DNA of 64,000 nucleotides, taken from the NCBI GenBank assembly GCA_965112155.1, contig OZ218101.1; one strand, given 5' to 3'. Of this stretch, positions 3,619 to 36,317 are shown piece by piece. The translations under genes were made by a program, and so were the position numbers. This DNA is from Podarcis liolepis. Lineage: Eukaryota. A model generated the notes under the pieces. The model did not search any database and was not told the DNA's origin. It saw only the letters and a list, made by a program, of their open reading frames with translations. Numbering within the stretch: the first letter of the stretch is position 1; every line of letters begins with the position of its first letter.

Positions 3619-3994
3619 CCACATTTTTCCTTGTACAAGATGTTGATTTCCCCCCATATTTTTTTTTGTTAAAAATTGGGGGTCGTCTTATACATGGATT
3701 TATACAGTAAGCCTTGGGTGAACTGGTGGCTCCTGAGTCACCAGTGCTGTGGAGCTGGTTGGAAAGGTAAGATGGTGCCAAGATGGTGCCGAGGCGAGGA
3801 GGGAACTTGGCCACGATTCTGTCAGTTCTCACCTGCTGTGCCAAAGCACGGGGGATCACACAAAAGCTCAACAATTTTTTTGGCGATTTTCCAAAAAACC
3901 CCCAAAACTTTAAAATACCGATTTCTTAATTTTGGGCTCCCCAAAGTAGGGTTTGTCTTATACATGGGGTCGTGTTATACATGGGGAAATGCAG
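3619..3994. mobile_element. Tc1/mariner (Tc2-like) non-autonomous element
   Basis: Ends CCACATTTTTCCTTGTACAAGA and GTGTTATACATGGGGAAATGCAG followed by TA; internal repeated GGGGTCGTCTTATACATGG motif typical of this class. Confidence 0.65.
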
Positions 3995-4110
3995 TATATT
4001 TCCAAATCGCCACTAAACTCATGTTTCCTGCTGAACGTCCTGTGCTATAAAGTTATTTGGTTATATTTCCCAAGGCACTGAGGAATAATGTTTTTAATTG
4101 AAGCTGCAAG

Positions 4111-4131: not shown

Positions 4132-5502
4132 CCTTCTCCCCCCCCCCCATATTTTTAAAAATGTGTTATTAAGTCATTAGATTGTCACTGTTGCTGTAAA
4201 GACAATTGGTGCTATTTCACTCCAAACTGCAGCACAGGGAGCTGAGGATATTTTTTTTAAAAAAAACCAGCAGTGCTGCTGAGGATACTTAGAAATCTAG
4301 TAATGCTGTATCTGAGCCCTCTCCCTCTCATACTGAATACTTAGTTAGATAGATTTAATTAGGAAAATTTAATTCTTATTATTGTGTGTCCTTGTCCACG
4401 CATGTTGAGGAATGCACATGTACGAGACGAACACTTGTTCAGATCTTTAGTTTGAGTGACAGTGTGAGATGGGACGAATTATACACTTAAACAAGGGGCA
4501 GATGAGCAACACAACAACAAATCGCAGTTCAGAAGCGGTATGCTGTTTCTCACAAAACACAAAGATCAATTAATTACAAAGGCCTGCTCAGTACTGGGGC
4601 AGCAATTATTTGGCTAAATACAGGCAGTGAGAATTACACAATGGTCATGATACTAAATATAGGAAGGAGAGGATGATGGGTGCTTGATAGGTTAGGTGTG
4701 GAACTGAACCAGGCTAGGTAAGGAAATTTGGGGTGTAAGTGCACACTGCTGCAAAACAGCACCAGGTACCTGCATGAGAAGTGAAAGAGAGGAACCAGGT
4801 GCAGATATTGCCTATTCCAAGGCAAGAGGAGTGGGGAAAGGCTTGTCTTCAGGTGGCTGCAGTGAATCAGCAGTTGCCCTCAACACTCTGACACTGGTGG
4901 TTGCTTGGAGCTGCTCCATGCGACTTCCCAAGCCTGGTTCTTGGAGAACAAGGTGCCTTGTTGGTGAACAATTGGGGAAAAGGCTGTGATGGAAGGCTGA
5001 GGATACCTCATAGGCTTCCTTGAGCTCAGTATGGTACGAAACTGCTTCAAATGCTTTGTGTCCTAACTTTAAACATGTAAGAAAATAGCAAGGATGTAGA
5101 AGATGGAAGGGATCACTAGGGGAAGAAAGTAGGAACAGCTGCTGAGCTAACTAGGAGAGAGGAAACAGACCAGTCTCCTGTTCACCATGGCTGAATGAAC
5201 TGGGCTTGGCTATGGTAGAACTGAACGCTGAGGGTTTTGAAGAGAAAACTCTCAGAGACTTTGTATACAAGGGAGGGTTTTCTTCCAGAGCGAACAAAAA
5301 AGAGAAGGTGGATAAGATGTCTGGAATATTAGTGGACCTAAGCTTTCTTCCCATGGTTTCTGAGTGCAGAAGTGTGGAGTTCAAAAGCTGCAGTGTGCAT
5401 CATATGGATCCAGTTACAGATAGGTAGCCGTGTTGGTCTGCCATAGTCAAAACAAAAAAATTCCTTCCAGTAGCACCTTAAAGACCAACTAAGTTAGTTC
5501 TT

Positions 5503-5542
5503 GGTATGAGCTTTCGTGTGCAAGCACACTTCTTCAGATACC
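5503..5542 (-). ncRNA. Minimal type I hammerhead ribozyme motif (PLE-type), core intact
   Basis: Minus strand reads GGUAU-CUGAAGA-A-GUGUGC-UU-GCACAC-GAAA-GC-UC-AUACC. Stem I is GGUAU/AUACC, the core boxes are CUGANGA and GAAA, stem II is GUGUGC/GCACAC, and palindromic AGCU replaces stem III with a UC cleavage site. Confidence 0.75.
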
Positions 5543-5552
5543 TTCAGATACC

Positions 5553-5592
5553 TGTATCTGAAGAAGTGTGCTTGCACACAAAAGCTCATACC
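5553..5592 (+). ncRNA. Minimal hammerhead ribozyme motif with mutated core (GAAA to AAAA)
   Basis: Plus strand UGUAU-CUGAAGA-A-GUGUGC-UU-GCACAC-AAAA-GCUC-AUACC; position 5580 is A where the mirror copy has G. Confidence 0.65.
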
Positions 5593-5859
5593 AAGAACTA
5601 ACTTAGTTGGTATTTAAGGTGCTACTGGAAGGAATTTTTTTGTTTCATCATATGGATGTAATGGATGTTCACGCGTATTTCTATGATGTGTCTACTGCTG
5701 GCTTGCAGTATATCAAGCGTAGAGTCTCCTCTGAATAATGTTCCTTGAAGGGTTTAATTAGGTTAGGAAGCAGGTAAAGAGGAAGACATTTGCTGGTCTT
5801 GGGAGTCTTGGGCTACTGTGCCTAACTGGCCAGAGTCCCTCCTTTTAACTGATGTAGGT

Positions 5860-32739: not shown

Positions 32740-32878
32740 CAGGTGTGGAGGACATTTTGCCTTCCAGATGTTTCTGAACTACAACTCCCATCAGTCTCAG
32801 CAAGCATGGCCAATGGCCAAGGATGATAGGAGTTGCGATTCAGCAACATCTGGAGGGCCAAAGGTACCCCCACATCTG
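32740..32878. mobile_element. Palindromic hAT-type MITE (URR1-like)
   Basis: CAGGTGTGG...CCAGATGTT..GAACTACAACTCCCATCA...TGATAGGAGTTG..CAACATCTGGAGGG...CACATCTG; TSD ATCTAAAT / ATCTAAAC (7/8). Confidence 0.85.
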
Positions 32879-35210: not shown

Positions 35211-36056
35211 GTTGTTGTTGTTGTTGTTTAGTTGTTTAGTCGTGTCCGACTCTTTGTGACCCCATGGACCAGAGCACGCCAGGCACTCCTGTCTTCCACT
35301 GCCTCCCGCAGTTTGGTCAAACTCATGCTGGTAGCTTCAAGAACACTGTCCAACCATCTCGTTCTCTGTCGTCCCCTTCTCCTTGTGCCCTCCATATTTC
35401 CCAACATCAGGGTCTTTTCCAGGGAGTCTTCTCTTCTCATGAGGTGGCCAAAGTATTGGAGTCTCAGCTTCAGGATCTGTCCTTCCAGTGAGCACTCAGG
35501 GCTGATTTCCTTAAGAATTGATAGGTTTGATCTTCTTGCAGTCCATGGGACTCTCAGGAGTCTCCTCCAGCACTATAATTCAAAAGCATCAATTCTTCGG
35601 CGATCAGCCTTCTTTATGGTCCAGCTCTCACTTCCATACATCACTACTGGGAAAACCATAGCTTTAACTATATAGACCTTTGTTGGCAAGGTGATGTCTC
35701 TGCTTTTTAGAATGCTGTCTAGGTTTGTCATTGCTTTTCTCCCAAGCAGCAGGCGTCTTTTAATTTCGTGACTGCTGTCACCATCTGCGGTGATCATGGA
35801 GCCCAAGAAAGTAAAATCTCTCACTGCCTCCATTTCTTCTTCTTCTATTTGCCAGGAGGTGATGGGACCAGTGGCCATGATCTTCGTTTTTTTGACGTTG
35901 AGCTTCAAACCATATTTTGCGCTCTCCTCTTTCACCCTCATTAAAAGGTTCTTTAATTCCTCCTCACTTTCTGCCATCAAGGTTGTGTCATCTGCATATC
36001 TGAGGTTGTTGATATTTCTTCCGGCAATCTTAATTCCGGCTAGGGATTCATCCAGC
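35211..36056 (-). mobile_element. BovB (RTE clade) LINE, 5'-truncated, 846 bp
   Basis: RT motif LRYADDTTL and BovB C-terminus (KAMVFPVVMYGSESWTIKK, LEKTLMLG..EG.RRRGRQR.RWLD); (CAA)n tail; 9-bp TSD ATGGGAATT at 35202-10 and 36057-65. Confidence 0.96.
35228..36055 (-). pseudogene. BovB ORF C-terminal reverse transcriptase fragment with one premature stop
   Basis: ORFs 35573-36058 and 35228-35440 are in the same frame. They are joined by a stop-free segment CWRRLLRVPWTARRSNLSILKEISPECSLEGQILKLRLQYFGHL after a single TAG at 35573-75 (expected TGG). Confidence 0.9.
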
Positions 36057-36317
36057 ATGGGAATTACTTATAAGTAAACATGTATAGATTTGCAGTGTTA
36101 GGTCAAAATTCTTGGCACACTTACTAGTGAGTAAGCCTATATAAAGTACTATGGGAATTACTGCCAAGTAAGCCTGAAGATAGATAGATAGACAAACAGA
36201 CCATTATATTAGGCCATTATAAGTTTCAGTGCAATCCTGTGTGGATCTAGTCAGACCTAAGTCCCACAGAGTTCAAAGGAACTTATTCCCAGATTAGTGT
36301 GTATGGGATGGAAGCCT
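36057..36317. mobile_element. Cluster of about three decayed palindromic Harbinger-like MITEs
   Basis: Partial copies at 36057-36098 (interrupted by BovB) and 36102-36175, and a fuller copy at 36227-36317 (CAGTGCAATCCTG...GTATGGGATGGAAGCC). Confidence 0.5.

Follow-up and report, generated by a model that had tools for sequence, protein, structure and literature searches.

A likely recent Penelope-like mirror insertion with two minimal hammerhead motifs in the first intron of NHS of Podarcis liolepis

The analysis of the window, i.e., the whole 64,000-nucleotide stretch of Podarcis liolepis DNA, indicates that the segment 5410-5645 is very probably a promoterless head-to-head fragment of a Penelope-like pLTR, likely inserted recently, in which both hammerhead motifs would be passengers, buried according to the predictions, and the G12A change in one of them is likely a neutral CpG deamination. 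Although real, the insertion is an ordinary representative of a known kind, the mirror insertion of a Penelope pseudo-LTR that carries minimal hammerhead motifs, and at least 153 loci of the genome share its state, with G12A on one arm only. The thousands of mirror insertions of this family are, with a modest preference on our part, read as a fossil record of integration events in which both target strands were primed, each at one of two start sites on uncleaved RNA of sense polarity drawn from a single source, and the two cDNAs were closed at the RNA 5' end, often via the self-complementary stems of the hammerhead.

Four inverted repeats of at least 25 nt were found in the window, and the sole near-perfect long one is formed by 5450-5541 and 5554-5645 (92 nt, 98%, with a 12-nt spacer). 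The element to which it belongs spans 236 bp (5410-5645) and consists of pLTR sequence only, arranged head-to-head and promoterless. Based on the sequence comparison, the long arm (5410-5541, sense on the minus strand) corresponds to the 3' part of the pLTR, +1 to +132, and includes a 40-nt tail (5410-5449, minus strand, +93 to +132) that is present at one end only, as described for the tails in the available text of PMC3846280 and PMC11167929. The short arm (5553-5645, plus strand, the sense strand of NHS) covers pLTR 0 to +92 and ends in a T-rich tract. The junction between them (5542-5552) consists of one additional C plus 10 nt that re-copy the arm 5' end, and similar re-copied junctions occur in other loci of the family. 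The element is flanked by a 12-bp repeat (5398-5409 and 5646-5657, plus strand) that is present in a single copy at the empty site in contigs of three related samples (runs X3, X4 and X6), where 5397 is joined directly to 5646; the flanking repeat is therefore a true target-site duplication, and the insertion, being absent from these samples, is likely recent. The fixed, equal-length terminal inverted repeats of a MITE or DNA transposon were not found here, and the unequal outer ends, the variable centres and the linkage to an RT ORF speak against such an origin.

The arms differ at exactly two positions, 5483/5612 and 5515/5580. Of 29 other best-hit loci, 19 contain the first 131 nt of the left arm without a single difference, while the A5612 variant is present in none of the other fetched loci, against 491 ordinary matches. 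Because the left-arm letters recur in other loci, both mismatches were assigned to the right arm, as private changes at 5580 and 5612.

On the minus strand, 5503-5542 is a minimal type I hammerhead motif with an intact core, in which the predicted cut falls after CUC, between 5508 and 5507; its counterpart on the plus strand (5554-5592) carries G12A (A5580, CpG to CpA). The motif scan of the window found the core on the minus strand with GAAA, on the plus strand with AAAA, and an unrelated partial match at 53939. All of the CUGANGA, GAAA and NUH boxes are present in the minus copy, and the plus copy departs from them through G12A. Moreover, the core boxes, the short helix I (4 bp in the family), the unpaired base 9/10.1 before helix II, the G10.1-C11.1 pair, the palindromic helix III stub (15.2-16.2, without loop 3) and the location in the pLTR of a Penelope-like element are shared with the minimal hammerheads that Penelope-like elements carry in metazoans (Cervera and De la Pena 2014; accessible text of PMC4209133), which supports the minimal type I anatomy named by the sequence-only reading. 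That source describes motif pairs on opposite strands 100-700 bp apart and a helix II of 7-8 bp in Schistosoma, whereas the window motifs, predicted from the sequence, lie less than 50 nt apart and have a helix II of 5 bp.

The predicted fold of the minus strand at 5503-5542 contains stems I and II with an energy of -10.1 kcal/mol (z -1.6), so the hammerhead fold by itself is not beyond chance. The prediction for stem II is 5 bp, GUGUG/CACAC, closed by a CUUG loop, and an extra unpaired A stands between A9 and G10.1. The fifth pair of stem I (C5542) is a product of the junction, since longer copies of the family have U there and a 4-bp stem I. The sequence-only reading of this motif thus stands, based on the fold and the motif scan, as regards the existence of stems I and II, while its 6-bp stem II is corrected to a predicted 5 bp, the fifth pair of its stem I is traced to the junction, and the extra A is added. 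The change of GAAA to AAAA at 5580 in the plus copy, which it had described as one of only two arm mismatches, was recovered by both the arm comparison and the motif scan. It had also called for a hammerhead search: the scan detected the core on both strands, and the search against Rfam returned no hammerhead family at E <= 1 for the window or at E <= 10 for 5495-5548, the matches below the cut-offs being to microRNA and snoRNA models only, i.e., generic hairpin matches.

The family is abundant in the genome, in which a 30-mer across the core gave 13,097 intact matches, 763 matches with G12A and 654 with C11.1T. Its longer copies continue past CCAAT-, TATA- and Inr-like motifs and reach the end of an ORF. 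At locus L309 (4045-6288), a 748-codon open frame matched RVT_1 (E 2.9e-12) and GIY-YIG (E 3e-5), both above the cut-off, and the hammerhead core starts 187 nt past the end of this frame; locus L019, which represents the loop subfamily of the window, connects to the same ORF end. The Penelope-like origin proposed earlier is supported by this ORF, in which RT and GIY-YIG are linked to a hammerhead pLTR downstream. L309 has no upstream pLTR, and none of the seven fetched copies proved to be full-length. As in EN+ Penelope-like elements, the parent has one ORF with RT and, at its C terminus, GIY-YIG, and the window insertion has an inverted 5'-truncated copy, a one-sided tail and a target-site duplication. 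Just ahead of the GIY-YIG region, the translation of L309 contains a C-x4-C-x2-C linker that agrees with the CX2-5CxxC linker between RT and EN given for Neptune and also for Nematis in the accessible text of PMC8557442; by its linker, the family appears to be of the Neptune type.

In the pLTR of L029 (1350-1500) and L309 (6290-6475), CCAAT, C-rich, TATATAG and TCAGT motifs are spaced like those of a polymerase II promoter. From this spacing the RNA start is predicted 3 nt before hammerhead stem I, and the transcription start referred to below is the one read from the TATA- and Inr-like motifs. In the main subfamily, loop II is CAUG and makes stem-loop II a perfect 14-nt palindrome, on which many tight mirror pairs are centred; the rarer subfamily of the window has CUUG. 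Loci L310, L312, L313 and L314 are long mirror insertions with inverted ORF fragments, and their opposite-strand hammerheads lie 1.6-3.2 kb apart. Altogether, the genome holds over 2,000 mirror insertions, and a mirror partner was found for 69 of the 101 position-sampled arms, an arrangement described as typical of Penelope in the available parts of PMC3846280 and PMC8557442. The family seeds the genome with thousands of near-perfect hairpins of about 90 bp, which would form double-stranded RNA wherever they are transcribed.

The whole window (1-64000, plus strand) is part of intron 1 of NHS, with exon 1 at G000:C4:41663146 and the next matching exon at C4:41873727. The exon located 380 bp upstream of the window encodes the NHS start, with 96% identity to the Lacerta agilis protein in the homolog search; the Pfam search with NHS exon 1 returned no family. 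Exon 1 ends with a GT donor on the plus strand, and later exons continue on this strand beyond C4:41873727, so that the insertion lies about 5.8 kb into a first intron of 210 kb. The plus strand had already been taken for the host sense strand, and the position of exon 1 upstream and exon 2 210 kb downstream agrees with this; as NHS is on the plus strand, the G12A arm is the sense arm. Within 324 kb around NHS, the core motif was matched by the window insertion only. In RNA run X23, labelled as another organism, 0 reads fell on the unique flanks, and the element reads came from other copies and formed no pile of read ends.

In transcripts of either strand, the hammerhead is predicted to be buried in the 92-bp hairpin. 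Enforcing the hammerhead fold within 5300-5750 cost 57.9 kcal/mol on the plus strand and 51.8 kcal/mol on the minus strand, with predicted pair probabilities of 0.0; in the isolated minus arm the same fold cost 0.8 kcal/mol. In either direction the antisense arm would be transcribed first and would then pair with the sense arm. A cis dimer of the two motifs is excluded, as they lie on opposite strands and neither finds a tandem partner in any transcript. Given the predicted burial and the absence of a cis dimer partner, G12 is probably irrelevant at the window locus. In the predicted hairpin of the plus transcript, A5580 faces C5515. Within long double-stranded RNA, A:C mismatches are favoured ADAR sites, and if A5580 is used as such, inosine could mimic G12.

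The change at 5580 had been attributed either to selection against self-cleavage of the pre-mRNA or to neutral deamination of a CpG, and the frequencies in the family favour the latter. The opposite deamination of the same CpG, C11.1T, was used as the control. Among short mirror pairs (a gap of 32-62 nt between two 14-mers, with mixed pairs carrying one change of each kind left uncounted), 1,890 were intact on both arms, 153 had G12A on one arm (window locus included) and 147 had C11.1T on one arm (binomial p 0.77; 95% CI of the G12A share 0.45-0.57), a comparison in which C11.1T is not a fully neutral control, because G10.1-C11.1 is conserved in minimal motifs (PMC4209133, accessible text) and its change may itself impair the ribozyme. 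G12A was found on 16 long and 18 short arms. A CpG in the tail, outside the ribozyme, served as another control: across 160 fetched arms it was read as CG in 142, CA in 11, TG in 3 and otherwise in 4, i.e., it decays about as often as the hammerhead CpG (9.8% genome-wide), and as it also leans towards G>A, this lean is not specific to the ribozyme.

It is very improbable that host selection fixed G12A on the grounds that the NHS pre-mRNA would be cut by a hammerhead left intact in sense. It is true that the changed arm is the sense arm of NHS, that hammerheads with G12A are slowed more than 500-fold, up to about a million-fold (available text of PMC2553840), which bears out the importance ascribed to G12 and means that the change would cripple an active hammerhead, and that Xenopus retrozymes are under-represented in introns (accessible part of bioRxiv 10.64898/2026.07.22.740005). 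However, the one-arm frequencies are equal, the tail CpG is skewed in the same direction, and neither transcript is predicted to form the hammerhead fold. Moreover, G12 is kept on both arms in the 1,890 intact pairs, so that any intronic one carries it in sense, and at the loci of the 101 position-sampled arms G8 was intact in 78/78, C3 in 68/68 and G5 in 75/76. According to the accessible texts, single minimal motifs showed no cleavage as monomers and their dimers cleaved poorly (PMC4209133), and the related PAc hammerhead of Anolis was cleaved only with the protein of the element (PMC11167929). The excess of G12A over C11.1T across all copies in the genome (763 against 654, p 0.004) does count against the neutral reading. 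Pairs changed on both arms are also in excess, with 12 observed against 3.1 expected for G12A and 6 against 2.9 for C11.1T (12 against 6, p 0.24). Inheritance from mutated sources, mixed ages or sequence context could account for these excesses. As a side observation on the both-arm pairs, ribozyme-dead sources may still transpose, or the arms may convert each other.

Family pairs differ at 77 non-CpG sites among the 7,470 compared, and for a young copy, two private changes on the same arm are more than is typical, so that errors during insertion or assembly are possible. In such a case, which we regard as unlikely, A5580 and A5612 would stem from RT error, from damage or editing of the single-stranded cDNA, or from misassembly of the palindrome, and not from later CpG deamination in the germline. 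Both changes do fall on one arm while the other arm is free of them, the three related samples lack this copy, and the cDNA-strand context of 5580 is TTC, an APOBEC-type target; however, non-CpG changes show no arm bias in the family (39 on short and 38 on long arms), and one-arm G12A equals one-arm C11.1T, as predicted by symmetric CpG decay.

As regards the origin of the mirror structure, the 3' ends of the arms fall into two classes, at about +85-100 and +124-132. The 171 pairs, taken from loci chosen by several patterns, comprised 144 with one long and one short arm, 3 long with long, 2 short with short and 22 with an unclassified end; likewise, of the 69 partnered arms among those sampled by position, 63 belonged to pairs of one long and one short arm. 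The letters that define subfamilies rarely disagreed between arms (0/124 at +42 G/T, 1/125 at +46 T/A, 2/122 at +61 and 3/115 at +19 A/T), so both arms derive from one source, and an origin from two unrelated source elements is ruled out by this agreement. Target-site duplications of 12-14 bp were present in 82 of 132 pairs. The 5' ends of the 101 position-sampled arms were distributed as follows: 28 at or beyond -30, 10 at -29 to -6, 34 at -5 to +3, 23 at +4 to +30, 3 at +31 to +38 and 3 beyond. The arms meet mostly at the predicted transcription start and away from the cleavage site, and no peak of 5' ends was found at the predicted cut (+35). In arms ending at +1, the next letter was G in 21 of 41, which is a weak hint of an extra G derived from the cap.

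We infer that the simplest model, taken together with the in vitro data in the accessible text of PMC11167929, is priming on both strands followed by joining of the cDNAs at the RNA 5' end. There, a related element nicks and extends both strands and uses two RNA start sites, with no need for hammerhead cleavage. The endonuclease of the element would nick both target strands about 12 nt apart, and from each nick, uncleaved sense RNA of one and the same source element would be reverse transcribed, with priming at the tail end (about +130) for one nick and in the T-rich tract (about +92) for the other. Both cDNAs would extend as far as the 5' end of the RNA, for which a position 3 nt ahead of hammerhead stem I is predicted, and would be joined there.

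Self-priming, in which one nucleic acid folds back and is copied, e.g., from an antisense template (PMC3846280, accessible text), is a less probable though serious alternative for the head-to-head structure. It would also explain the shared subfamily letters and the both-arm excess, and it agrees with the existence of 373 tight pairs; of the first 50, counted by eye, 34 have their centre in the self-complementary stem II, and in 4 an arm begins at the cut site. However, in 35 of 144 pairs the short arm extends beyond the long arm at the 5' end by 15 nt or more, and the reverse holds in 10 of 144, an asymmetry not predicted by a simple fold-back copy of the long arm, although later deletions at palindrome centres could mimic such unequal 5' ends. 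Fold-back also accords poorly with the 18 short-ended arms among 101 for which no partner was detected, and with the clustering of junctions at the predicted sense start site. The origin of the Penelope head-to-head inversions is called open in the available part of PMC3846280, and priming on both strands is not stated in the titles and abstract openings of the literature searched, a scope outside which most subscription literature lies.

If true, priming on both strands would account jointly for the head-to-head inversion and the one-sided tail. Every mirror insertion would then be self-muzzling, with the ribozyme always in a hairpin, and could sit in an intron in either orientation. Because this family is young and present in many copies, with long and short ends coupled and junctions off the cut site, it makes the questions of the inversion and of the role of the hammerhead testable from genome data, and its genomic pairs can be compared with the existing in vitro system.

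To place the family among known systems, we compared it with three groups of elements, each as given in the available text of its source. The EN+ Penelope-like elements with an inverted 5'-truncated copy (PMC3846280, PMC8557442) share the head-to-head inverted pLTR, the 30-40-nt tail at one end, the target-site duplication, the TATA/Inr-like motifs of the pLTR and the order of RT followed by GIY-YIG, whereas the window insertion is restricted to the pLTR and mirror pairs are very abundant in this genome (69 of 101 sampled arms). In PAc (Poseidon) of Anolis carolinensis (PMC11167929), two 3' end classes about 35-40 nt apart and an uncleaved RNA template are likewise present; however, the PAc ORF begins in stem II, and no such start was found in the lizard family studied here. 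The accessible part of that paper gives no strand difference in the start site and leaves inverted products undiscussed, whereas the genomic pairs couple one long and one short end. The non-LTR retrozymes (PMC7229834; bioRxiv 10.64898/2026.07.22.740005) are likewise short, non-coding, hammerhead-bearing derivatives of Penelope, but they form head-to-tail tandems, in contrast to the window insertion, which is a single head-to-head pair and hence not a retrozyme.

The window contains several other repeats. At 1855-2003, arms of 64 nt with 80% complementarity and a 21-nt spacer lie in a GC-rich stretch and probably belong to a non-autonomous DNA transposon, and 3650-3995, with repeated GTCTTATA-type motifs near both ends, is likely a small derivative of a DNA transposon. 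The latter holds 14 nt (3857-3870) that match the G12A arm but were rejected as a family copy by their BLAST length. The minus-strand open frames at 35228-36077 resemble a fragment of a LINE reverse transcriptase. Two hairpins are probably derived from SINEs, one at 32767-32850, with a sub-threshold match to mir-5408 of Rfam, and the other at 54556-54627, with a 33-nt inverted repeat. Among the fetched loci, L220 (6086-9040) contains an unrelated 985-codon open frame resembling LINE ORF2, with a 347-codon frame ahead of it.
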